A stretch of DNA of 64,000 nt from Verrucomicrobiota bacterium. GTDB taxonomy: Bacteria > Verrucomicrobiota > Verrucomicrobiia > Limisphaerales > AAA164-E04. The stretch is from assembly GCA_047947115.1 (NCBI GenBank), contig CP170459.1:3840001-3904000 (forward strand), read 5' to 3'. Position 1 is the stretch's first letter; every line of letters starts with the position of its first letter. Shown here piece after piece: positions 8,254-61,975 of the stretch. The translations under genes were made by a program, and so were the position numbers. Below the pieces are notes generated by a model. The model ran no database searches. It worked only from the letters and a program-made list of their open reading frames with translations, and had not been told where the DNA came from.

Positions 8254-8346
8254 GGAGAGATGGCTGAGTGGTCGAAAGCAACGGTTTGCTAAACCGTCGT
8301 CGTGGGATAACTGCGACCGCGGGTTCGAATCCCGCTCTCTCCGCCA
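8254..8346 (+). tRNA. tRNA-Ser(GCT)
   Basis: GGAGAGA/TCTCTCC acceptor stem, anticodon arm ACGGT-TTGCTAA-ACCGT, long variable arm, GGTTCGAATCC T-arm, encoded CCA. Confidence 0.97.
8281..8346 (+). repeat. attL core (3' 66 bp of tRNA-Ser)
   Basis: Identical to 54038-54103. Confidence 0.95.
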
Positions 8347-8472: not shown

Positions 8473-9618
8473 ATGGGTTCTACAAAAGTATCTGTTAGGA
8501 AGTATAACCATTCTAGAACAGGTAAGTGGGTAGTAGGATACCGCGACACTGCCGGCAGTAGGCGAAGAGAGTTCTTTGCCACAAGATCTGAGGCCAATTC
8601 CAGAGCTGACCAGCTTAAGGTTGATTTAAAAAACCTTGGCAATCGATCACTGGGACTGACTGATCAAATCCGCATTGAAGCTCTTGAATGCTCCGAGAAA
8701 CTTGCGTCTTTCGGGAAGACATTGTCCCAGGCCACTGAGCACTACATTTCTTATCTCCGGACCACTGAGCGCTCCACCATTATCCGAGACCTGGTTTGTC
8801 GTTATTTGGACTCCAAGAAATCCAAAGGCCGATCTGACCGACACATTAAAGATCTACGTTCCAGATTGTCCCGCTTTTCTGATTCGTTCGGTGATAAGTT
8901 CGTATCCACTTTGACTACCGAGCAACTGGATCAGTGGCTTTTGGGGCTAAATCTGAGTCCACAGTCAGTGAACAACTACCGGACAGTTTTAAACGGGCTT
9001 TTTAATCATGCACTGAAACTTGGTTATACTCAAACCAACCCAGTTGACGGAATTGATCGACATTCAGTCAAAGTGGCACCTCCTAACATTTTGACTCCTG
9101 ACCAGTTGAAACGACTTCTGGCTGCTTCAAATCCCCTTCTTGTGCCTTATATCGCGATTGGTGCATTTGCTGGTCTGCGTTCCGCGGAACTGGCCAGGCT
9201 TGATTGGCGCGATGTCCGATTGGATCGTGGGCTGCTTGAGGTCACTGCAGCCAACTCCAAGACAGCCTCCCGGCGGTTGGTTGAATTATCTGACAATTTA
9301 AAAGCCTGGCTTGAGGCATGCGTTCGCCTCAATGGCCCTGTTATGCCTTCGGGATTCCGTAAGTTGGTCACTAGTGCTTGGGAGGTGGTTTTCCCAAGCA
9401 GGAAGAGGGACAACGATCTTCGGAACAGTTTCGCCAGCTACCATTTGGCGCTGCACCAGAATGCTGCCTATACGGCTGACCAACTAGGGCATCGAACAAC
9501 TGCTGTTTTATATCAACATTACCGGGAACTGGTCTCTAAAGAAGAAGCCGAGCAATACTTCGCTATAAATCCAGAACGATCAGGCAACCTGATTATCATG
9601 TCAGCAGCCAGTGCTTAA
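8473..9618 (+). CDS. int: Tyrosine recombinase/integrase
   Basis: AFAGLRSAELARL (catalytic R), SKT (K), NDLRNSFASY, LGH...HY; N-terminal arm-binding-like region; directly after the tRNA. Confidence 0.93.
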   Translation: MGSTKVSVRKYNHSRTGKWVVGYRDTAGSRRREFFATRSEANSRADQLKVDLKNLGNRSLGLTDQIRIEALECSEKLASFGKTLSQATEHYISYLRTTERSTIIRDLVCRYLDSKKSKGRSDRHIKDLRSRLSRFSDSFGDKFVSTLTTEQLDQWLLGLNLSPQSVNNYRTVLNGLFNHALKLGYTQTNPVDGIDRHSVKVAPPNILTPDQLKRLLAASNPLLVPYIAIGAFAGLRSAELARLDWRDVRLDRGLLEVTAANSKTASRRLVELSDNLKAWLEACVRLNGPVMPSGFRKLVTSAWEVVFPSRKRDNDLRNSFASYHLALHQNAAYTADQLGHRTTAVLYQHYRELVSKEEAEQYFAINPERSGNLIIMSAASA

Positions 9619-9673: not shown

Positions 9674-10489
9674 ATGAAGGACGAACTATTGGACCGAAAG
9701 GAGTGGGATTTTACCGATATCCCTACGGATGAACTAGAATCGGCGTGGCAATACGAACTGGCCAGGACTGTAAAATCATGTGTGATGGATCAGGCGGTTT
9801 GTTCTAATAATCTGGCAGGTGATCCGCCGAGGAAACTTGATTTGAATAAGGATGACGATGCTATGCTTTGGTATGAGAACACTGTAGGTTGGTATGATGA
9901 TTGGGCTAGCTCAAACGAAATATCGGCACACACCTACCTCCCTTGGACCAGCTTACCAGCAAAGTATAAAACGAAATACTTGATCGCACACAAAGGGGAA
10001 ATCCCTGCCCACCTAACACATGATCACTGTTATACGATGCCATATTCCAGAACTCTCGTCCACCTGGAATACAACCCCTCCCCAAACTCCCAGGTCCTAC
10101 AAAAAAGACACAATTACTTAAAAGCTCAGGACAGACCAGTCACATCTCTACATTTATTTGAAATCCATTTCCGACGAGGTATCGATAGCCGGAGTTCAAT
10201 GATCAGCGATTTTAAGAAGTTTTTGGAGGAGGAATTTCCTAACATGCCTGATAAAGTTGGTCGCCCTAAGTCCAAGATGCCAGAGTTAACGAACCTCGCA
10301 ATCTTTAGGCTACTCATTCACTATACCCCTGATGAGACAATCAGCAAGATTGCAGGAACCTACTCACAAAGGCGCCGTATCAGTTTGAAAGAGCTGGAAA
10401 AAGCTGAAAAAGCTGTCTGTGCTCAAATGCAGGGATTCTGTAAACCTTACCGAACAAGATTTACTCCAAAGCCCCTGGGCCCGTCTTAG
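9674..10489 (+). CDS. Hypothetical protein (island backbone)
   Basis: 271-aa ORF co-oriented between int and xis; EWDF...WQYELAR N-terminus, GRPK motif. Confidence 0.6.
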   Translation: MKDELLDRKEWDFTDIPTDELESAWQYELARTVKSCVMDQAVCSNNLAGDPPRKLDLNKDDDAMLWYENTVGWYDDWASSNEISAHTYLPWTSLPAKYKTKYLIAHKGEIPAHLTHDHCYTMPYSRTLVHLEYNPSPNSQVLQKRHNYLKAQDRPVTSLHLFEIHFRRGIDSRSSMISDFKKFLEEEFPNMPDKVGRPKSKMPELTNLAIFRLLIHYTPDETISKIAGTYSQRRRISLKELEKAEKAVCAQMQGFCKPYRTRFTPKPLGPS

Positions 10490-10700
10490 CTTAAGTCTCA
10501 AAAGCTGGGATTCCTTGGCGGCCCAAGCCCAATAATGAGTTTCGTTAATGGAACTCGTCTTTTATGATTGCATGCAAAAAGTGTAAACCATTTGTAAACA
10601 ATGGTTAAATCTATCTGTTTAAATTATCTCCCTCCATTAAGTATCGAAGTTTTTCGGAGTATTGCATCAGGGGACCATTGTCATGTTAGCTCCGGGAGAC

Positions 10701-10928
10701 ATGGCAAAAATAAAGAAGCAATCAACCCCAACTGAAGGAGCTCTCCTCACAAGAGAGCAGGTAGCTGCTAGGTTACAGATAACAACCAGGACACTCGATC
10801 TCTGGATCGACGCTCAGAAGATACCCGTCATCAGACTTACCTCTGGTTGTATACGGTTTCAATCTGAAGCCGTTGAAAATTTCATCCAGAAGCACACAAT
10901 TAATGCAAGTTGGGAGTTACCACTATGA
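10701..10928 (+). CDS. Excisionase/AlpA-like helix-turn-helix protein
   Basis: LLTREQVAARLQITTRTLDLWIDAQKIPVIRL..GCIRF; GGGAG RBS before ATG 10701. Confidence 0.85.
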   Translation: MAKIKKQSTPTEGALLTREQVAARLQITTRTLDLWIDAQKIPVIRLTSGCIRFQSEAVENFIQKHTINASWELPL

Positions 10929-11149
10929 AAAGTAACTCGATCGATAGCCGGGGTGATAGACTCCCATCCACCTCCACAACAAAAAATCTCAACCAGTAGG
11001 ATAAGCACAGACACCCCTTTTCGGGGTGTCTGGATGGATATCTGTACCTTGAGATTTTCCGTCACAATTTCACTTGCCAATGCAAGTCACCAGTAATCAC
11101 CGAGTTCAGGCATTGGACGACTCCGGCCCAAATTAGAAGGATAAATAAA

Positions 11150-11746
11150 ATGGATTCAAAAGAATCAAATAACACATTCGCGAACATCGACAAGTTTCGC
11201 ATCACACAAGATTTCGACGATATCAGCGTCGAAACTGCCTATACCCACATCCCGTTGCGTAAACCCGGCAAAACCGAATTCTTTAGAGTTAATCCCTCCG
11301 AGGAATCCCGCGGCCAGTTCCTATTCCTGGATTACAGTGAACCAGGGGCCATGACCAAAGACAAATATTTGATTGTACCAGAGCTGGTGAATCAAATACC
11401 AGATGTCTCGGGTGTGAAAGCCCATTTGGTAGTGACGGCTGTATCCAGACCAGAGAATGCACCGTTTCTTTGGCCGATTCGTTTACCAAACAAGACAATG
11501 TTTGGTCCGGATACTTGGGCTCTCTCCGACCTGGACATATTGAAGAGATCAGAAGAGGAGTGGTTGCGTAAAGAAACGAAAGCCGGGGTTCAAGGCTACA
11601 TGGCCGTCATCAGCAAAGCCGATTGGCCGGAACCCGAATTCCCGAACCTGAGTTTCCAGGAGATGCTCGCTAAAGCCATACCAGAGGAACGAATTATAAA
11701 GGATCAAAGCCACACTGTGATCCGCAAGATTAGAGGGGAAATATGA
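11150..11746 (+). CDS. Hypothetical protein translationally coupled to the DNA polymerase
   Basis: 198 aa, AAGGA RBS, ATGA overlap with the polymerase start; LRKPGKTEFFRV and PFLWPIRLP motifs. Confidence 0.75.
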   Translation: MDSKESNNTFANIDKFRITQDFDDISVETAYTHIPLRKPGKTEFFRVNPSEESRGQFLFLDYSEPGAMTKDKYLIVPELVNQIPDVSGVKAHLVVTAVSRPENAPFLWPIRLPNKTMFGPDTWALSDLDILKRSEEEWLRKETKAGVQGYMAVISKADWPEPEFPNLSFQEMLAKAIPEERIIKDQSHTVIRKIRGEI

Positions 11747-13473
11747 ATCTGGCAGCCTTCAAGGAAATCTGGGTGATTGATTTCGAATACCAATCCCTAC
11801 CGGGTGAGAACCCAGATCCGCATTGCATAGTGGGTTTGGAAACCATCACCGGCAAGTCGATAAGAATGGGTGCAAAGGAACTTCGATCGTCGAAAGTTCC
11901 TCCATTCGGCATCGGCTCAGATTCCCTTGTCGTGGCTTACTACGTGCCAGCCGAGTTCAGTTGTTTTCTGGAACTCGGCTGGCCGTGTCCTGAAAATATT
12001 TTGGATCTTTGCGTAGAATTCAAGTGGCTGAAGTCAGGCGTGGCGGATGGACTCAAACGTGACTTGGTAGCAGCCCTGAAACACTTCCGACTTGATGCGA
12101 CGATCCCAGACGCGAAGGACGAATGGCGGCAACTTGCGATACGGGGAGGGCCGTTTACTACCCCGGAGATGGAAGGACTCATGGATTACTGTGCGGAAGA
12201 CGTATATGCGACGGCGGAGTTGTTGACTAAAATGCAGCCACAAATCGATCTCATCAGAGCTTTAATCAGAGGCTCATATTGCTGGTCTGTGGCCCTTATG
12301 GAACGCGCAGGTGTGCCAGTCGATATGGAGGCTTTGACGTTGTTGTGGGGGCAATGGAGCGCCATACAAAGCGGCCTAATAACCGCAACTGACAAATGGG
12401 AGATCTATGAGGGCAATACCTTCAAACGGGATCGGTTTGAGGCCTTCCTGAGGGATCACAAAATCCAATGGCCGAGGTTGGATTCCGGTCAACTCTGTTT
12501 AAAAGACGAGACATTCAGGCAACAGGCTAAAATCCATCCACGATTGATTGCCCCCTTGCACGAATTACGCACCACTTTGGGTAAACTGAAGTTAAACAGT
12601 TTGGCTGTCGGCAAAGATGGCCGCAACCGTGTGATGTTGTCCCCATTTCAATCAAAGACGGGACGCAACCAACCATCTAATTCCAAGTTCATTTTCGGAC
12701 CTGCTACTTGGATCCGAGGCCTTATAAAACCGGGTGCAGGCCGGGCGATTGCTTATATCGATTGGAGTCAACAGGAGCTTGGAATTGCGGCACGTCTTTC
12801 AGGCGATCGGAATATGATGGAAGCCTACTGTTCAGGGGACCCATACATCACTTTCGCGAGAATGGCGGGTGCTGTGCCGAAGGACGCTACCAAGCAAAGC
12901 CACCCAGCTGAAAGATCGCGATACAAACAGTGTATGCTTGCCGTCCAATACGGCATGGGAGCTGAGAGTTTGGCTCAAACTGCTTGCTTGGCTTTACTGG
13001 ATGCCAAAGTTCTTTTGCAAGCCCACAGGGACGCGTTCCCGGACTATTGGAAGTGGAGCCGACAAATAGAACAACAAGGATTTGGAAACGGGGAACTTCG
13101 ATCAGCGTTCGGTTGGCGTGTCCTTGTTAATTCGGACAGCCGTAGTGCCAGTGTTAAGAACTTCCCCGTCCAAGCCAACGGAGCGGAAATGTTGCGTCTG
13201 GCCATCATGAAAATGCACACGGCAGGGATCGAAGTAATCGCGCCGGTTCATGACGCAGTAATGATTGAGGCGGCTTCTTCTGAAATCGAAACCCATACGG
13301 TGAAGGCGCAAGAGTGCATGAGGTGGGCGAGCGAGCAGATCCTACCAGGATTCCCGCTGGATTCGGACGCAAAGATAGTCAAGTACCCTAACCGGTATAT
13401 GGACGAAGACCGGGGAACTGAAATGTGGAACACGGTCATGGGCATCGCAGGGGGTCCACTATATACCCACTAA
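11743..13473 (+). CDS. Family A DNA polymerase with 3'-5' exonuclease and no 5'-3' exonuclease (mobile-element type)
   Basis: Exo motifs IDFEY and YCAED; SKTGRN; motif A DWSQQELGIAA; motif B RSRYKQCMLAVQYGMG; motif C VHDA. Confidence 0.93.
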   Translation: MNLAAFKEIWVIDFEYQSLPGENPDPHCIVGLETITGKSIRMGAKELRSSKVPPFGIGSDSLVVAYYVPAEFSCFLELGWPCPENILDLCVEFKWLKSGVADGLKRDLVAALKHFRLDATIPDAKDEWRQLAIRGGPFTTPEMEGLMDYCAEDVYATAELLTKMQPQIDLIRALIRGSYCWSVALMERAGVPVDMEALTLLWGQWSAIQSGLITATDKWEIYEGNTFKRDRFEAFLRDHKIQWPRLDSGQLCLKDETFRQQAKIHPRLIAPLHELRTTLGKLKLNSLAVGKDGRNRVMLSPFQSKTGRNQPSNSKFIFGPATWIRGLIKPGAGRAIAYIDWSQQELGIAARLSGDRNMMEAYCSGDPYITFARMAGAVPKDATKQSHPAERSRYKQCMLAVQYGMGAESLAQTACLALLDAKVLLQAHRDAFPDYWKWSRQIEQQGFGNGELRSAFGWRVLVNSDSRSASVKNFPVQANGAEMLRLAIMKMHTAGIEVIAPVHDAVMIEAASSEIETHTVKAQECMRWASEQILPGFPLDSDAKIVKYPNRYMDEDRGTEMWNTVMGIAGGPLYTH

Positions 13474-13587
13474 TATTATTAATTAAGATACAATATAAGA
13501 TATATAATAAGAGGCCTACAGGGTACCCCAAATGGGCAGGGGTGCCCGTCCATTTGGGCAGGGGTGCCCGTCCATTTGGGTAGGGGT
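13471..13587. repeat. Putative replication origin: AT-rich tract plus 22-bp tandem repeats
   Basis: AT-rich 13471-13510; TGGGCAGGGGTGCCCGTCCATT at 13533 and 13555, partial third copy at 13577. Confidence 0.7.
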
Positions 13588-13603
13588 CACTTTTGAAGAG
13601 CAT

Positions 13604-13936
13604 ATGGCTGAGGAGCTATACATTCCAGACTGCATAGAGCAGAGGGGTTCCGGTAAACCTTTTGTCAAAGGGCCCATACCGTTGGATTGGGTGAAAAGTG
13701 CCTGCCAAGCCGGAGCGGCTGAGTTGGCTTGGTATTTGCGGTATAAGGAGGGTCTTGCCAAGTCCAAAACTATCCATATCAGACCGGGGGAGATGAAAGT
13801 CTTTGGTCTGTCTGAGAAAGTTCGAAGGCGGCAGGTGAAAGCTCTGGAGGTCGCTGGGTTAGTGAAAATTATTTCAAGGCCGGGTCAAAGTCACCGGCTT
13901 GTCATTTTGGACTCCCCAAGTGGTGGGGGGCTTTAG
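13604..13936 (+). CDS. Small winged-HTH-like protein (possible origin-binding factor)
   Basis: FVKGPIPLDW...FGLSEKVRRRQVKALEVAGLVKIISRPG wHTH pattern; start placed at ATG 13604 after the repeats. Confidence 0.7.
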   Translation: MAEELYIPDCIEQRGSGKPFVKGPIPLDWVKSACQAGAAELAWYLRYKEGLAKSKTIHIRPGEMKVFGLSEKVRRRQVKALEVAGLVKIISRPGQSHRLVILDSPSGGGL

Positions 13937-13947
13937 AAAGGAAAACA

Positions 13948-14217
13948 ATGGTAAAATTAGCAGAAAAGTCAAAGTCGATATACGACATCGCCCACAACCT
14001 CATCTGTGGGAAGTTGAGAAAAACAGGAAAGACACAAACTCCCGATGTAGCAATTGAAGAGCTGGTCCAACTTACTGGAGTCACTAAGGAGTTAGCCACC
14101 GATGCGGTTGAATATATTTTCTTCTGCTTGGAAGATATGTCTGGAACGTTCGATACCGAGGAGGAAGCTGATGAAAACGCACGGGAACTTCTGTGGTTCG
14201 TGTTTCAAGAAAAATGA
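13948..14217 (+). CDS. Hypothetical protein
   Basis: 89-aa ORF with AAGGA RBS, co-oriented, followed by a hairpin. Confidence 0.55.
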   Translation: MVKLAEKSKSIYDIAHNLICGKLRKTGKTQTPDVAIEELVQLTGVTKELATDAVEYIFFCLEDMSGTFDTEEEADENARELLWFVFQEK

Positions 14218-17265: not shown

Positions 17266-18136
17266 GTGTCCCCTATAGGGATGCCCCGAATGAAAATATT
17301 ATCCAATCCGGAACGTGAAACGTATGATTCTCCACCACGTTTTAATTTACCAGAGCGAAAGGTGTTTTTCGATCTACCTCCGACGCTTATGCAAATTGCT
17401 GAAAATTTGCGTAATCCAGACAATCGTGCGTGTTTCATCGTTGCTTGTGGATATTTCAGAAGTACCAAGAGATTCTTTTCAGGAAAATGCCGACAGGAAG
17501 ATATTGATTATGTGGCCAAGAAGACAGGATTAACAATCGGTGATGAAACAAATCGCGGTCACGACCGATACAGAACTGTTCGACATCGGAAAGCGATAAT
17601 CGAGTTTTATGGATTCAAAGATTACGACACCGCTGCAAAAAGATTCTTGGAGAAGGAAATTGAAGCCATGGTGCAATCTCAGCTCAAGCCAAGACTCATT
17701 TTCTTTCGTTCAGTGGATATTTTGGTGGAACAAAAAGTTTCACCTCCTGGAAGCTCCTCATTGACCAAATTGATTCTGAACGTACTAAACCGCCACCGAC
17801 AATCCCTTATCGAAAGTGTGGATAGGATTCTTCCATTGGAAACACGCAAGGTATTGGATCATCTCACGGAAAAGGTAATCAACAAACATGACGAGCCGAT
17901 TAACCGCTACCGGCTGACACTTCTGAAAAAATGTTCCCAATCAACCAGGCCAACAAAGATCCGAGAAGGTGCCAGTGATCTTCAATTGCTCCGGAGTCTC
18001 CATGATTCCGTGTGCCCCATTGTCAAACAATTGGAGCTACCTCACGGTGCCATTCAATATTTCGCTAACAGCGTTATTCGATCGGACACATTCGACATAC
18101 TCCGAAGGACGGAGGAAGACCGGTATCTGCACCTAA
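17266..18136 (+). pseudogene. Tn3-family transposase N-terminus (DUF4158-like), truncated by IS1380
   Basis: MPRMKILSNPERETYDSPPRFN...CGYFRSTKRFF; coding breaks at the IS end at 18137. Confidence 0.75.
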
Positions 18137-19717
18137 CCCGGATATTTCATCAAAACCAGAAATACCCACAAATTGGTTTTCATTGTAGCTCAAGGTTGAG
18201 TTTGGAGAGGTCAGACGCACCTTTTTAAGGTTCTTTTCGAATTGAGGATACACTCCCCCAATCCCCCATTGTTTTTCGACGTGCCGGGGCAGCACTCTGG
18301 GCATGTTATCCTGTGTTCAGTTTGGCGTGAATATGTGCAAAGAGTTTTTGATAGGGGTATGCCTGACTCATCAATAATCGAATGCGTCTTGTGTTTTTCA
18401 GGACGATGGTTCCAATTTTGAACAGTTTCAGTCGGATGGTGCTGACCTGGGCTCGAGCCATTTCACTTCCTTTCAATCCAACTCGGCGGATGGTTTCCAT
18501 CAGCACATAGGCAGCACTGCTGAGCAGGAGTCGAAACTGATTGCTCCACCATTTATGACAACTGGTTCGGTCGGCGAATAATCCAAGCTGTTGTTCCTTG
18601 ATGCGGTTTTCCATTTCTCCCCGAGCACAATAAATCTTCTCGTAGATATGCTGGGCATTGCCCGAAAGGTTACTCACCACAAATCTGGGATTGCTGCCCT
18701 GTCGATTATGTTCCGCTTTAATGATCACCATTCTTTCCTGATCCCAGGAATGTGCCTTGTATTGGAGACAGGCAAAGTGGCGTTGTTTTTCACCAGTCTT
18801 TTCAAAGAGAACAGCGGATTCTGAAATAAGGTTTTGTCCTTGTTCAAGCAATCGTGGGTTTTGGGCGATTCCAACAACATACTTCACTTCATGAGGTTCG
18901 CACCAACGCAACATTCTCCAACGACAAAACCCGGAGTCTCCCCGGAAGATGATGCGTACTTTGGTCCATTTTAGGCGCAGGCGTTGAACCAGCAATTTGA
19001 GAATAGCCCATGCATGACGTGCAGGATCAATATTGCTTGGGCGTAGATAACTGACCAAGAGTTGCTCGCCACAAAAGACATAAAGAGGAAGGAAACACCA
19101 GCAATCGTAATACCCGTGAAAACTGCGTCTCTCCTGGCCGCCATGAACTCGATCATCAGTTGCGTCAAAATCCAGAATCAGTTCTTCCGGAGCTTTTTTG
19201 AAAGAGTTGATAAAAGTTTCAATCAAGACTTTCGAAAAATCCATCGCTGTTTGGCGATCTGCCCGAGCTTCAAAGCGACACAAAGTAGGACTGCTGGCAA
19301 GCGAATCAGAACGTTCCACAGCACTTTGAATGAGTGGATCCTTTCGGAGGCAATCGTGATCGTTGAGATCTTCGTATCCCAAGGCCAGGCCGTAAATGCG
19401 TTGACGCAACAAATCGAGAGTGGAATGAGCCGTCCGGCCAGATTGACGAGGATCGGTCATCACCTTGGAAATCGATTTGGTAAGACCAAGTAACCGATCA
19501 GCCTGCCTTAAAAACAAAGCACCACCGTCCGAGGAAATGTGACCACCGCTGAAAGAAGCCTCAATTTTTCGTCGTTCAAGGCTTGGAAACTCAAAAGAAA
19601 TCTGGTTACACTTTGTCATTAGCGGAGTTTTTACTGGTTTTTGTTTCAACACCAACAACCATATGGGATTATCCCAAAAACTTCGCTAATTTTTTTTAAT
19701 TTAATGAAATATCCGGG
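18137..19717 (-). mobile_element. IS1380-family element, copy 1 (1581 bp)
   Basis: Terminal IRs CCCGGATATTTCAT; near-identical to 35998-37578. Confidence 0.92.
18306..19658 (-). CDS. IS1380 transposase
   Basis: ISSDGG, GYEDLNDH, LDFDATD, RGDSGF, RGEMENRIKE. Confidence 0.93.
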   Translation of the reverse strand: MLVLKQKPVKTPLMTKCNQISFEFPSLERRKIEASFSGGHISSDGGALFLRQADRLLGLTKSISKVMTDPRQSGRTAHSTLDLLRQRIYGLALGYEDLNDHDCLRKDPLIQSAVERSDSLASSPTLCRFEARADRQTAMDFSKVLIETFINSFKKAPEELILDFDATDDRVHGGQERRSFHGYYDCWCFLPLYVFCGEQLLVSYLRPSNIDPARHAWAILKLLVQRLRLKWTKVRIIFRGDSGFCRWRMLRWCEPHEVKYVVGIAQNPRLLEQGQNLISESAVLFEKTGEKQRHFACLQYKAHSWDQERMVIIKAEHNRQGSNPRFVVSNLSGNAQHIYEKIYCARGEMENRIKEQQLGLFADRTSCHKWWSNQFRLLLSSAAYVLMETIRRVGLKGSEMARAQVSTIRLKLFKIGTIVLKNTRRIRLLMSQAYPYQKLFAHIHAKLNTG

Positions 19718-35997: not shown

Positions 35998-37578
35998 CCC
36001 GGATATTTCATTAAATTAAAAAAAATTAGCGAAGTTTTTGGGATAATCCCATATGGTTGTTGGTGTTGAAACAAAAACCAGTAAAAACTCCGCTAATGAC
36101 AAACTGTAACCAGATTTCTTTTGAGTTTCCAAGCCTTGAACGACGAAAAATTGAGGCTTCTTTCAGCGGTGGTCACATTTCCTCGGACGGTGGTGCTTTG
36201 TTTTTAAGGCAGGCTGATCGGTTACTTGGTCTTACCAAATCGATTTCCAAGGTGATGACCGATCCTCGTCAATCTGGCCGGACGGCTCATTCCACTCTCG
36301 ATTTGTTGCGTCAACGCATTTACGGCCTGGCCTTGGGATACGAAGATCTCAACGATCACGATTGCCTCCGAAAGGATCCACTCATTCAAAGTGCTGTGGA
36401 ACGTTCTGATTCGCTTGCCAGCAGTCCTACTTTGTGTCGCTTTGAAGCTCGGGCAGATCGCCAAACAGCGATGGATTTTTCGAAAGTCTTGATTGAAACT
36501 TTTATCAACTCTTTCAAAAAAGCTCCGGAAGAACTGATTCTGGATTTTGACGCAACTGATGATCGAGTTCATGGCGGCCAGGAGAGACGCAGTTTTCACG
36601 GGTATTACGATTGCTGGTGTTTCCTTCCTCTTTATGTCTTTTGTGGCGAGCAACTCTTGGTCAGTTATCTACGCCCAAGCAATATTGATCCTGCACGTCA
36701 TGCATGGGCTATTCTCAAATTGCTGGTTCAACGCCTGCGCCTAAAATGGACCAAAGTACGCATCATCTTCCGGGGAGACTCCGGGTTTTGTCGTTGGAGA
36801 ATGTTGCGTTGGTGCGAACCTCATGAAGTGAAGTATGTTGTTGGAATCGCCCAAAACCCACGATTGCTTGAACAAGGACAAAACCTTATTTCAGAATCCG
36901 CTGTTCTCTTTGAAAAGACTGGTGAAAAACAACGCCACTTTGCCTGTCTCCAATACAAGGCACATTCCTGGGATCAGGAAAGAATGGTGATCATTAAAGC
37001 GGAACATAATCGACAGGGCAGCAATCCCAGATTTGTGGTGAGTAACCTTTCGGGCAATGCCCAGCATATCTACGAGAAGATTTATTGTGCTCGGGGAGAA
37101 ATGGAAAACCGCATCAAGGAACAACAGCTTGGATTATTCGCCGACCGAACCAGTTGTCATAAATGGTGGAGCAATCAGTTTCGACTCCTGCTCAGCAGTG
37201 CTGCCTATGTGCTGATGGAAACCATCCGCCGAGTTGGATTGAAAGGAAGTGAAATGGCTCGAGCCCAGGTCAGCACCATCCGACTGAAACTGTTCAAAAT
37301 TGGAACCATCGTCCTGAAAAACACAAGACGCATTCGATTATTGATGAGTCAGGCATACCCCTATCAAAAACTCTTTGCACATATTCACGCCAAACTGAAC
37401 ACAGGATAACATGCCCAGAGTGCTGCCCCGGCACGTCGAAAAACAATGGGGGATTGGGGGAGTGTATCCTCAATTCGAAAAGAACCTTAAAAAGGTGCGT
37501 CTGACCTCTCCAAACTCAACCTTGAGCTACAATGAAAACCAATTTGTGGGTATTTCTGGTTTTGATGAAATATCCGGG
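35998..37578 (+). mobile_element. IS1380-family element, copy 2 (1581 bp, CTAA target duplication)
   Basis: Same IRs as copy 1; CTAA on both flanks. Confidence 0.93.
36057..37409 (+). CDS. IS1380 transposase
   Basis: Differs from copy 1 at one visible residue (K/N near the N-terminus). Confidence 0.93.
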   Translation: MLVLKQKPVKTPLMTNCNQISFEFPSLERRKIEASFSGGHISSDGGALFLRQADRLLGLTKSISKVMTDPRQSGRTAHSTLDLLRQRIYGLALGYEDLNDHDCLRKDPLIQSAVERSDSLASSPTLCRFEARADRQTAMDFSKVLIETFINSFKKAPEELILDFDATDDRVHGGQERRSFHGYYDCWCFLPLYVFCGEQLLVSYLRPSNIDPARHAWAILKLLVQRLRLKWTKVRIIFRGDSGFCRWRMLRWCEPHEVKYVVGIAQNPRLLEQGQNLISESAVLFEKTGEKQRHFACLQYKAHSWDQERMVIIKAEHNRQGSNPRFVVSNLSGNAQHIYEKIYCARGEMENRIKEQQLGLFADRTSCHKWWSNQFRLLLSSAAYVLMETIRRVGLKGSEMARAQVSTIRLKLFKIGTIVLKNTRRIRLLMSQAYPYQKLFAHIHAKLNTG

Positions 37579-54037: not shown

Positions 54038-54103
54038 ACGGTTTGCTAAACCGTCGTCGTGGGATAACTGCGACCGCGGGTTCGAATCCCGCTCTCTCCG
54101 CCA
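54038..54103 (+). repeat. attR (duplicated 3' end of tRNA-Ser)
   Basis: Perfect 66-bp copy of 8281-8346; the tRNA 5' part is absent. Confidence 0.95.
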
Positions 54104-59135: not shown

Positions 59136-59550
59136 ATGCGATCAAGTGGGGATTGTAATTTCTCCAACAAACTGGACATTTGTTTTATCAGGTCATCGAG
59201 TGATTTAATGAATTCTATTCATAGCATTCTGAAAATGCCATTCCCAGCAAGCTGAGACGACAGCACGATGGTAGTAAATCTTGAGCTATTCTAACAAGGT
59301 TCGTTTTGCTTTTCAACAGGAGGCGAATCTACCACTTTCGGACAAGGTCCCGATTTTGAGGCTGATCCAAATTATTTACCACAGCGAAGTGCTGAGGCCC
59401 GCCAAACCCATCAGATTCGCCACCGCAGTGGACCCTCTCAAACCGCGTTCTGAAATCAAACTTAGCTTATTGAGCGTTGAAATTTATCAGTATACTAGCA
59501 CAGATATCCAACTATGTCTTGTTGAATCGGGCAGCCCTTTATTTCCAGAA

Positions 59551-61195
59551 CACGGCTTTTTTCTCGGCGAGTCTTTCTTGTTGATAATAAAGGGAATCAA
59601 TTTTTGCTAGACTCAATTGCCTGATTTTGCCATGGTAGTCGGGTATGAGCAGCTCTGAAAACCTCATCTCAAAACAGCAAATTAGGGTTCAAGTCCTTTC
59701 CCCCAATCAGCGGAGTCGATTTAACCAACTCTTAACAAAGCACCATTATTTGGGGACAACTCCGCCAGTTGGCGACTTCATTGAACAGGTTGTCCTGTGT
59801 GATGGTAAGTGGGCGGCTTTGCTGATCTGGGGACCAGCTGCACTCAAGCTTAAGGATCGAGAACGGTGGATTGGTTGGAATCCTCTACAACGAGCCGAAC
59901 GCTTAAAACTGGTGGTTCAAAACAGACGCTTTCTACTTCTCCACAAAAAGGGAACTCAACCACATCTCGCTTCCCGAGCACTCGCAGCAGCCTGCAAGCA
60001 TTTACCTGCGCAATGGCATGAACGGTTTGGATATCGCCCCCTGATCGCAGAAACATTCACCGATCCTGAACAGTTCCAGGGCACTTGCTATAAAGCCAGT
60101 GGATGGGACGCTGTAGGCATGAGTCAGGGGAGTCGCAGAGACCATGTCGATTTCTATGTCGATGAAAAACACCCCAAGCGTCTTTGGCTTAAAGAAATTT
60201 GTCCCAAAGCTCAAAAAATCATTACATCCTCGCAACTGCCGCAGCAATTCACTGAGGCTACAGTAGCCGCAGCCAATGGCATCCTCCCATTGCCACCGGC
60301 CTCTCAGCGCAGTCTTTTTGAAACATTTCAAAAAGTCAAAGATCCCCGTCGTTCCAACAATCGTTTTCCTATCGGATCGGTGCTCACCCTCATTGCCATG
60401 GCTTTGTTGAGCGGCGCTAAACAGATTTCCGAGATCGCTCGTTTCGCTCAGCGATTGCGCTCCAACCAACGTGCCCAGCTCAGGCTGCCACTCAAACGAG
60501 GAACTCGTCGTTTCTATCAAGTTCCCAGCTACAGTGTTTTTTATCAATTATTTACCCGCATCGATCCCGAAGAGTTCGCCAGCATGTTGAGCGACTGGCT
60601 CACGCAAGATGAAGGGCATCGTCCAGGAGTGCTGGCCTTGGATGGAAAAATGATTCGTGATGTCATCGGCACCGTCACGCTGGCCAATGTGGAAGATGGT
60701 TCCCCAAGGGCTATGACCATCATGGATCAAAAGGAAGACACTGATAGATGCGAACTCAAAGCAGCACAAGAACTGCTCAAGGCTCAGCCCAGTTTAGATG
60801 GAGTCACAGTGACAGCGGATCCATTGCATTGTCAAAAACAGAGCGCACGTATCATCGCCGAAAAGTGAGTCAAGAAACGCGCTACTACTTTTTCCAGTCA
60901 CTATGATTTTGAACGCAGCAGTGAAGAATGGATCAACTTAATTCGCCAACACTGGGCTGGAGTGGAAAGCCGCAGCCATTGGCGACGGGATGCGACCATA
61001 GGAGAGGATCGCACTCGGCTGAATAATCCAAATGCGCTGGCTAACCTGGCATTGATCCGCAATCTCAACCTCCATGTTCTGGCAAGGCAGTCTTGGGATG
61101 GTTGGTTGCCTGGTTTGATTGAAAGATTGATCTCCAATCCTGCAGAAACTTTAAACATGCACAAAGCGTGCTAACCCTTAAAACAAAAAACCGTG
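59551..61195 (+). mobile_element. ISAs1-family element with a 10-bp target duplication
   Basis: IRs CACGG(C/T)TTTTT; ATTTCCAGAA at 59541-59550 and 61196-61205. Confidence 0.88.
59645..61174 (+). pseudogene. DUF4338-ISAs1 transposase fusion, internally deleted
   Basis: HHYLG...ETFTDP..F.GTCYKASGW (DUF4338-like); DPRR, LDGK, TADPLHCQ; stop at 60868, then RQHW.GVE...WRRD...ED in another frame. Confidence 0.8.
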
Positions 61196-61975
61196 ATTTC
61201 CAGAAGAAGTATTTCCATTGATCAAACTCGATGAACCAGGGGAATGGAATCTGTTGGCCGCCCCTGTATCGAATGGAACAGGGAATGCTACTTTGAAGCT
61301 GCTTGCATCGGACGGCTTTCAAACAACTACTGGGACCATTAGGGTCGAAGTGCGGCCTATAAACGACCGCCCTGTCATCGAAGGATTGCCCGATCGCCTT
61401 GAAGTCGGAAGGAACGGCATTTTGATTCCGTTTAACATCACAGACATCGAAACAAAGAGTGATTCTCTGACCGTATTGATATCCGCAAAGCAGCAATTCA
61501 GGCGATTGGAAGAATATTTTGTCATTGAGCGAAATGGACCTCAATTTCAACTGAGAATCATTGCTGATGATGATGTGCAGGGAGAGGTTTTGCTGCGTTT
61601 GATCGTTCTGGATGGTGAAGGGGGATCTGTAGAACATATCTCCAATGTGAAATTTTTGGATTCAGAGGAAGTGAGCTCGCAGATTCAATTCGAACGCCTG
61701 CCAAATAACCAATTGCGGTTGACGTGGGAAGGCGATCTGCAACTTTTTTCAACCCCAGATTTGCATCAACCATTCCAAGCGGTGCCAGCCGCTGCCAGTC
61801 CATTTGACGTTTCTATGGATCAAAATCAATTCTATATACTGCGTTCTGAAAATACCTTCCCTTAATCTCCTTACTGTCATTGTTGGTAAACGGTGACCTT
61901 GTTACTGCTTGCTTTTTCACTGGTAATCCAGCCACTCATCGCTTTTTCCTTTCGTTTGATCGTTGTGTGGGGTAG

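Follow-up and report, generated by a model that had tools for sequence, protein, structure and literature searches.

A conserved, movable non-coding cassette beside a CHEAP-family PolA gene as a likely replication origin of integrative islands

The window analysed here is the whole of a 64,000-nucleotide stretch from a Verrucomicrobiota bacterium (contig CP170459.1, positions 3,840,001 to 3,904,000). It contains an integrative island with a module of three genes, which encode a protein resembling single-strand-binding (SSB) proteins, a family A DNA polymerase (PolA) and a small winged helix-turn-helix (wHTH) protein. About 120 bp of non-coding DNA, hereafter the cassette, lies between the last two genes and, on the evidence of sequence comparison, is a real and conserved cis element and a reverse-oriented copy of a three-part signal made of repeated boxes, a short junction and an AT-rich tract. 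The same comparisons indicate that this cassette accompanies the SSB-like–CHEAP PolA–wHTH module on integrative islands of many bacterial phyla. Once the island has excised, the cassette is likely to serve as its replication origin, of an undescribed replicon type, resembling the lambda and iteron origins and probably opened by the wHTH protein. An earlier sequence-only reading of this DNA had proposed an origin bound by the wHTH protein; conserved architecture, non-coding conservation and independence of position and orientation all support the origin. A search of mainly open literature found no description of this origin or of the module.

Anatomy of the cassette in the window

The cassette has three parts, given here in window coordinates.

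13471..13512 (minus strand): AT-rich tract, predicted DNA-unwinding element (DUE), from A/T count, duplex stability, phased 12-mers and strand skew
13513..13525 (minus strand): junction, the boundary between repeats and tract; variant of the family CCCGT(A/C)C / CAGG(T/C)CC and candidate priming site
13528..13593 (no strand assigned): three 22-bp repeats, iteron-like boxes and predicted wHTH binding sites, two of them with a GGGCA-N4-TGCCC dyad

The tract opens at the TAA stop codon of the PolA gene (13471-13473), and 37 of the 40 nucleotides from 13471 to 13510 are A or T. Only 10 places in the 6.08-Mb genome reach an A/T density of at least 36/39, and the tract is the least stable 40-bp duplex of the 46-kb island (-34.8 kcal/mol, against -41.4 for the next and a mean of -54.6). 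Read on the minus strand, the boxes are followed by the junction and then by three phased 12-mers that each start with TCTTA (13512-13501, 13500-13489 and 13488-13477), with a skewed composition on that strand (T23:A15, C3:G1). The pattern TCTTATTATA.{1,2}TCTT occurs only twice in the genome, in this tract and in that of a second module described below, both times on the minus strand.

The repeat units of 22 nt start at 13528, 13550 and 13572, and their identity to the first is 100, 91 and 68%. The motif GGGCA-N4-TGCCC is found at 13534 and 13556, and the version in the third unit (13578) is degenerate. The segment 13527-13540 forms an inverted pair, 86% complementary, with 13545-13558 or 13567-13580. 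A match of at least 34/38 at a lag of 21–24 bp was found at nine places in the genome; the other eight are short-unit microsatellites by eye, and among the nine only that of the window adjoins 27 A/T in 30 nt. The AT tract at the PolA stop, the 22-bp iterons, the palindromes and the inverted pair, all of which had been pointed out beforehand, are thus confirmed in the sequence. The three phased 12-mers of the tract and the conserved junction had escaped that earlier reading.

Comparison with the nearest relative (L163), whose PolA gene is 81% identical, separated the conserved from the variable parts. Positions 13511-13535 are identical at 25 of 25 nucleotides, and tract plus junction at 62 of 65, a value that exceeds all 1663 windows of 65 nt within polA. 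The boxes agree at 42 of 52 positions, and the perfect palindrome is lost, with no copy in L163. The conserved strand-specific part of the cassette, to judge from these alignments, is the junction with the tract and not the palindrome. The window junction was assigned because of its position and because the clade-mates L001 and L185 have a canonical junction in the same inverted place. Membership of the window cassette in the family is judged from its position, the tract pattern, its conservation relative to L163 and a detector based on architecture alone, which called it on the minus strand with a score of 32.

The genome carries a second module (L001, G000 2605089-2607935) with the same three genes at 35, 58 and 46% identity, on a 39.5-kb island at tRNA-Leu(cag) (G000:C1:2602853-2642430) with a 31-bp attachment repeat. 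Its PolA–wHTH gap also holds an AT-rich tract and four 22-bp repeats, which are non-palindromic and unrelated in sequence to those of the window. Between the two cassettes of this genome, as their sequences indicate, the architecture is kept and the sequence is not. The L001 cassette is inverted, like that of the window, and when a position weight matrix (PWM) trained without the inverted loci was combined with a repeat score, the inverted L001 site ranked first genome-wide. No integrase lies beside the tRNA of this second island; an integrase-like match is found near its far end (2641876).

A shared architecture across the family

Loci were drawn from GTDB genomes, viral contigs and metagenome contigs, those with less than 400 nt behind PolA being dropped and the distant phage PolAs L103-L156 (<35% identity) left out of the analysis. 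A single-sequence search of viral contigs gave no locus. Within the 115 loci kept, a wHTH gene was found no more than 1.2 kb from PolA in 103, which is not an independent rate because the profile was built from the same loci; removal of 11 near-duplicates left 92 wHTH-bearing loci. The hosts are labelled with 11 phyla, and the occurrence of the module is sporadic (3/301 genomes of the class, 3/401 of the order and 3/22 of the family, counts that include this genome). An SSB-like homologue lies directly upstream of PolA in 77 of the 78 loci that have an open reading frame (ORF) there, and one integrase family is present in 65/104 loci. After the wHTH gene no conserved gene other than integrases was found.

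A repeat of 21–24 bp within 170 nt behind PolA was detected in 52 of the 92 deduplicated loci; the same test gave 0/92 inside PolA, 1/92 inside the wHTH gene and 0/92 in shuffled sequences. Only lags of 21–23 stand out in the periodicity of the family. The usual order of the cassette is boxes, then the junction CACCCGT(A/C)C, then a tract starting TCTTAT, and the junction-plus-tract pattern occurs on the forward strand in 47/92 loci and in 0/92 controls. In the 54 sites that make up the family junction PWM, the box nearest the junction has dyad symmetry, its centre lying at a distance of 9 bp (57% pairing, against 23%), with at least five of six pairs in 28/54 against 5.5% in shuffles; the second box is dyadic in 25/54 (5.5–7.2% in shuffles over both boxes). 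Subrepeats of the tract are spaced by 11–14 bp in 40/69 cases. The tract is pyrimidine-rich on the cassette strand (T759:A458, C249:G154), and phased tract units lie on that strand in 39/54 sites and on the opposite one in 1/54. The box sequences vary by clade, and the junction and the start of the tract are constant. Presence of the cassette also goes with presence of the wHTH gene, since the detector matched 57/92 wHTH loci and 1/12 loci without one, and that single match has a divergent wHTH.

Some PolA loci without a wHTH gene have other features behind PolA. Short G-rich repeats of about 9 bp take the place of the cassette in L097, L098, L100 and L102, together with a 25-bp sequence common to L097, L098 and L102, and these loci possibly have another origin type. 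In an Acidobacteriota clade (L021, L035, L040), PolA has no wHTH behind it and no cassette was detected; a terminator-like hairpin follows the PolA stop, by eye. Separately, some module loci adjoin terminase, portal or capsid genes (L082, L085-L089, L092, L099, L079, L010), and given these neighbours the module may also drive satellites or prophages.

Inversion, relocation and transfer

In the PolA tree (quick method), a branch with support 93 sets apart on one side the four loci in which the whole cassette is inverted, namely that of the window and three clade-mates. In nine other loci, identified by eye, the cassette stands behind the wHTH gene, seven forward (L085-L089, L092, L095) and two inverted (L055, L017), and there the PolA and wHTH genes abut; the automatic detector found five of these nine. 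At L027 and L061, where these two genes abut as well, it precedes the SSB-like gene. The cassette is outside the wHTH gene in every locus examined. A site that occurs in either orientation and on either side of a gene is hard to read as the promoter of that gene, and this mobility in place and orientation, as far as genomic arrangement can tell, favours an origin over a wHTH promoter.

The module as a whole is also found in different surroundings. In L161 and L173 a 98% identical copy of 10968-14002 lies beside tRNA-Thr with a different integrase, and in L164 a copy of 79% identity adjoins tRNA-Arg. Because such copies of the module occur at different tRNAs and integrases, the module moves between islands as a unit.

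Which protein reads the boxes

The sequence-only reading had proposed that the downstream wHTH protein binds the iterons and had suggested looking for repeats that co-vary with it. The binding is moderately supported, by the winged-helix fold, by the co-occurrence of cassette and wHTH gene and by repeat arms that track the recognition helix. The expected covariation was seen in helix columns, and the whole-protein and cruder helix tests were not decisive. Both helix-box tests were post hoc, since a table of helix tips and box arms had first suggested a code. The columns emerged in the second, with arms anchored on the junction and 14 PolA clusters, in which recognition-helix columns 0, +1 and +6 were the top three of 63 wHTH columns (z 3.6, 2.9 and 2.7); the best of 118 PolA columns reached z 2.9. 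Several pairs recur across separate clusters: RD or RE with TGCG, RK with TGTCC, RN with TG(T/C)TC, and R combined with an aromatic amino acid with TGTG or NNTGC. In the window the helix has EK and the box TGCCC, and PK proteins of Pirellulaceae go with GGAAC-N4-TGTCC boxes, whose layout is close to the window dyad. There is, from these associations, moderate evidence that the box sequence tracks the residues of the wHTH recognition helix.

Operator, hairpin and other readings of the cassette

The best surviving alternative is that the cassette is only an operator or promoter, through which the wHTH protein regulates its own gene or downstream cargo, with the tract as a promoter element. The cassette does stand directly before the wHTH gene in most loci (45/92 forward), the wHTH protein resembles regulators of the GntR, MarR and Crp types, and the helix-box association would suit an operator as well as an iteron. 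The inverted and relocated cassettes described above speak against it, no sigma-70-type promoter was found in 13300-13750 (0.6 expected), and a skewed tract with a period of 11–14 bp and a fixed junction are not operator features. The reading is unlikely as a complete account; regulation by the cassette may be a second role, as iterons often double as operators.

Another reading takes the repeats as single-strand hairpins or a cruciform, that is, a priming or nicking signal of the ssi, sso or oriT type. About half of the family has dyadic boxes, 21/54 family arrays fold with z <= -2, and the window array folded alone gives z values of -2.0, on the plus strand, and -1.2. The whole region of the window does not fold clearly better than chance (z -0.2 to -1.2 in four folds). 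L163 has only a broken form of the palindrome and L001 has no copy of it, its array folding no better than shuffles (z +0.8), although tract and junction are kept. Dyads at a fixed period of two turns suit protein dimers on duplex DNA, and box symmetry is better read as dimer-binding sites in that form. Moreover, no relaxase or HUH endonuclease was found among 107 neighbour proteins scanned. The hairpin was rejected as a functional form, the earlier suggestion that it could be a priming signal is not borne out, and the reading as a whole is very improbable.

Less probable again is a wHTH-bound site for partition, packaging or recombination directionality in place of initiation. Terminase, portal or capsid genes do occur in some relatives, and phased repeat arrays are also found in centromere-like sites. 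The cassette lies within or beside the trio of replication genes and accompanies it from island to island, neither this island nor most of the loci scanned show packaging or ParA genes, and such sites need no easily melted, skewed tract. A chance tandem duplication by an AT-rich patch can be practically dismissed, as can the start of the coding sequence of an extended wHTH protein: an ATG at 13532, inside repeat 1, is in frame with the wHTH gene and the PolA frame crosses the junction in 16/54 relatives, but the periodicity and junction of the family against the null controls, non-coding conservation above that of polA and a stop codon in the extended frame in L163 refute it, so that translation of the tract as the wHTH N-terminus, named in the sequence-only reading as a refuting case, also fails.

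Other candidates were tried and rejected. No four-tract G-quadruplex pattern with loops of up to 7 was found in the window, L163, L001 or any of the 54 family arrays, the window site gave no Rfam match up to E 1, and no terminator was found there.

Points that weigh against an origin

Several observations weigh against reading the cassette as an origin served by these three proteins. No exact match to the DnaA box consensus was found in 54 cassettes, and the single near-match of the window sits in the polA coding sequence. Contigs from salt-marsh and seawater samples (four runs) cover the module; they contained neither an excision joint nor an excised circle, although contigs cannot show absence and the right attachment site (attR) lay outside the stretch compared, and their comparison showed no rise in copy number of the island. 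The module had no match in 72,556 plasmids of PLSDB or 50,697 phage records of INPHARED (E 1e-60 and 1e-50), and therefore no known free replicon depends on it. The detector was empty in 35 of the 92 wHTH loci, 4 of its 57 matches are low-scoring upstream ones and may be due to chance, and at low threshold it yields 86 clusters in the genome, where it is neither complete nor specific. The window junction is atypical (below 8 on the family PWM), and the window tract alone is matched by 90/1000 shuffles with a tract-only PWM. An nhmmer profile of junction and tract, too insensitive for the purpose, missed the window site, gave no genome match and barely recovered L001.

The assignment of the binder and its partner meets similar reservations. 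In the whole-protein comparison the partial correlation with the boxes was 0.16 for wHTH and 0.25 for PolA, the first, crude helix-box test ranked only 6/68, and the second covered arm positions 3-4, of which position 4 alone gave no signal; L046, L029, L041 and L095 are exceptions to the helix-box pairs. The fold matches of the wHTH protein are generic and include TFE, ORC1, Cdc6 and the DnaB of Bacillota, replication-initiator PHROGs (O-like and others) each matched 1/81 wHTH members, and no Rep_3-type Pfam family was found among those 81. Assignment of the 198-aa protein of the module to the SSB proteins is likewise weak (Z 4.7).

A proposed mechanism of initiation

If the cassette is the origin of the island, wHTH dimers would occupy the two to five boxes, whose spacing of about two helical turns sets them on the same side of the DNA, and this binding would open the adjacent AT tract. 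The gp32-like protein, possibly together with the wHTH protein, would hold the pyrimidine-rich strand, whose subrepeats of 11–14 bp resemble DUE repeats. Synthesis would then start at the junction, which is constant while the boxes change; the factor that reads it should accordingly be constant too. Two options can be envisaged for priming. In the first, the PolA–SSB pair would prime at the junction, as the staphylococcal-cassette pair CCPol-MP does, and the CCC of the junction with a melted tract on its 3' side would fit a start of that type; in the second, host helicase and primase would be loaded into the bubble. The proofreading PolA would extend in either case, and in the window a start at the junction would direct plus-strand synthesis to the right. 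That PolA–SSB primes at the junction is a real possibility on this analysis, if one somewhat on the doubtful side. More tentative still is a self-sufficient replicon of three proteins, in which the wHTH protein would open the cassette, the gp32-like SSB and the CHEAP polymerase would prime de novo at CCCGT, and replication would proceed by strand displacement.

The search for other replication enzymes bears on these options. A Pfam scan of the neighbours covered 100 of 167 family representatives, the longest and those with Walker A motifs first, and seven others, and these 107 proteins, including all 20 Walker A representatives, gave no match to a helicase, primase or relaxase family, and terminase, portal or capsid proteins made up some of them. 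No helicase or primase was found in the 28 ORFs of the window island and its edge. The completeness of the neighbour scan is limited by the contigs, many of which are short, and only 55/104 loci have 2.5 kb on both sides.

Comparison with known replication systems

The O protein that binds the lambda origin has a winged helix, and the small winged-helix binder predicted for the island is one point of likeness. In ori-lambda, dimers bind palindromic iterons that are flanked on one side by an AT region of 40 bp with strand asymmetry (PMC5043065), and the island cassette likewise has palindromic repeats (in 2/3 window units, absent in L001) and an asymmetric AT region of about 40 bp. In contrast, ori-lambda lies inside the O gene and P loads the host DnaB, whereas the island cassette is intergenic and movable, its binder of 110 aa lacks a C-terminal domain, no gene resembling P was seen and the island carries its own polymerase and SSB-like protein. 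Iteron plasmids such as RK2, F, P1 and pSC101 have phased direct repeats and a DUE of repeats of about 13 bp, one strand of which is bound by their Rep proteins (PMC5043065; PMC4081077). The cassette shares with them the helically phased repeats (22 in the window, 21–23 in the family), a DUE of 12-mers or 11–14-bp subrepeats and one special strand. These Rep proteins have two winged-helix domains and bind as monomers to asymmetric iterons, with DnaA boxes alongside; the island has one such domain, boxes that are often dyads, cassettes without an exact DnaA box and an extra conserved junction, on an integrative island and not on a plasmid.

The polymerase leads to a third comparison. CCPol-MP, the closest relative of CHEAP to have been characterised, can prime de novo; it favours starting with a purine where the template has a cytosine, and the template must extend for at least 8 nt on the 3' side (PMC7581432). 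As with CCPol-MP-Cch2 of SCCmec, an integrative element here encodes a PolA and a small OB-fold-like partner from a single operon that has an origin, here a candidate one, beside it (PMC7581432), and the CCC of the junction would offer the preferred template cytosine. The origin of SCC elements has 5-bp iterons bound by a helicase (PMC7581432; PMC10061031), whereas here a stand-alone wHTH protein takes the place of the helicase, the boxes of 15–18 bp recur on a period of 21–24 bp, the SSB-like gene precedes PolA and is gp32-like, and the exonuclease is whole. All 17 PolA–SSB primase pairs are linked to a helicase and come from Bacillota (PMC10061031), but no D5/COG3378 or DUF927 helicase was found among the 107 neighbours or the 28 island and edge ORFs; in that comparison the motifs of the window PolA are intact and the matches of its partner to OB-fold SSBs are weak (Z 4.7, TM 0.34). 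The TV-Pols are associated either with D5 helicases or with a helical partner (PMC2579912). SaPI/PICI islands also have iterons beside the replication genes of an integrative element; a Rep helicase that loads itself binds these iterons, and a primase is encoded upstream (PMC7581432), neither enzyme having been found at this island.

CHEAP is the subfamily closest to CCPol (PMC10201439). The CHEAP enzymes (cluster 15), whose reference is an active proofreading polymerase, are described as cellular auxiliary polymerases with 'No known partners' (Czernecki et al., PMC10201439). The island enzyme shares with them the Leu at B3, intact exonuclease motifs and a by-eye match to the reference (PMC10201439), and differs from the published account in that two partner genes constantly accompany it, integrases occur in its context and a candidate origin lies nearby. 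By these comparisons, the cassette resembles the lambda and iteron origins and belongs to neither, nor to the CCPol-MP-Cch2 family.

The island and its genes

The features that define the island and its module are as follows.

8254..8346 (plus strand): tRNA-Ser(gct), of which the 3' 66 bp (8281-8346) are the left attachment repeat
8473..9618 (plus strand): tyrosine integrase, from sequence matches
10662..10928 (plus strand): excisionase-like HTH_17 protein, from sequence matches
11150..11746 (plus strand): likely gp32-like single-strand-binding protein, 198 aa, beta-rich, from AlphaFold and fold matches
11743..13473 (plus strand): family A DNA polymerase, CHEAP subfamily (Pfam DNA_pol_A, 1.3e-24)
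13604..13936 (plus strand): single winged-helix protein, 110 aa, predicted origin binder, from AlphaFold and fold matches
54038..54103 (plus strand): right attachment repeat, an exact 66-bp copy of the 3' part of the tRNA, which bounds the island

The attachment repeats enclose 45.8 kb, and the genes run in the order tyrosine integrase, unknown ORF, HTH_17 gene, 198-aa ORF, PolA, cassette and 110-aa ORF. The window PolA has R391, K395, L399 and Y403 as well as D13/E15, D88, Y149/D153, D340 and H503/D504; with Leu at motif B3 and both exonuclease and polymerase motifs intact, it is by its motifs a CHEAP-family enzyme, and over the first 400 residues it and the A1 consensus resemble the I. dechloratans CHEAP reference by eye. 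Its closest named relatives are from Verrucomicrobiota. The genome has a separate, distant PolA (23% identity) at G000 3.54 Mb, and the island PolA does not replace the host Pol I. For the 198-aa protein, predicted by AlphaFold with a pLDDT of 93, the best matches, all weak, are to gp32 of T4 and RB69 (Foldseek E 0.03, TM 0.34; VIA Z 4.7); there was no usable ESM Atlas match, and its alignment gave no PDB sequence or PHROG match. From the modelled fold it is likely to be a gp32-like single-strand-binding protein. The 110-aa wHTH protein (pLDDT 87) has winged-helix matches with a best Z of 8.2, and ESM Atlas returned only unnamed or HTH_41 clusters. In some environmental strains (runs X1 and X12) its N-terminal region carries a 9-base in-frame insertion at 13655-13660.

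Several further observations concern the surroundings of the module. The ORF 9674-10489, which separates the integrase gene from that of the excisionase, matched nothing in Pfam or PHROG and has a distant homologue at G000 1683227; its counterpart in L161 is 2185-2916, and the ORF varies among islands with a common replication module. The cargo (15062-52841) includes a sulfatase, two Ser/Thr kinase-FGE-domain proteins, a photolyase pair, transposases and surface proteins with Ig, LRR and beta-helix repeats. Two transposase ORFs of 450 aa lie at 18306-19658 (DDE_Tnp_1_4) and 36057-37409, and a DUF4158 protein (17266-18228), the N-terminal part of a Tn3-type transposase, is truncated beside the insertion at 18306. 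A transposase-like element at 59550-61199 shares 90% identity with another directly behind the module in the related strains L161 (6260-8136), L162 and L180, where the insertion falls after the position equivalent to 14002. Further related tyrosine integrases without a CHEAP PolA are found at G000:C1 4657, 342330-355281, 2340712, 2494853 and 4538711; most adjoin tRNA genes (Thr, Tyr, SeC), and the one at 4.54 Mb has a similar excisionase.

Significance

The anatomy of the cassette, its inversion and relocation and the association of helix and box are new here. With them the CHEAP polymerases, described in 2023 as cellular and without known partners, gain a job, two partners and a start site. 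The combination of variable boxes, which track the wHTH helix, with a constant junction and tract points to the place of priming. Replication of islands with neither helicase nor primase becomes directly testable, with a construct of 2.8 kb and a defined site of 120 bp. Should the module prove self-sufficient, it would rank with the smallest replicons of double-stranded DNA and would supply orthogonal pairs of origin and initiator. Under the three-protein scheme, a proofreading polymerase would copy the circle without a helicase or primase of the island, two or three residues of the recognition helix would set origin specificity, and different box types would allow several islands to coexist in a cell, each replicating on its own. 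If this is true, the same would hold for the two modules of this genome.

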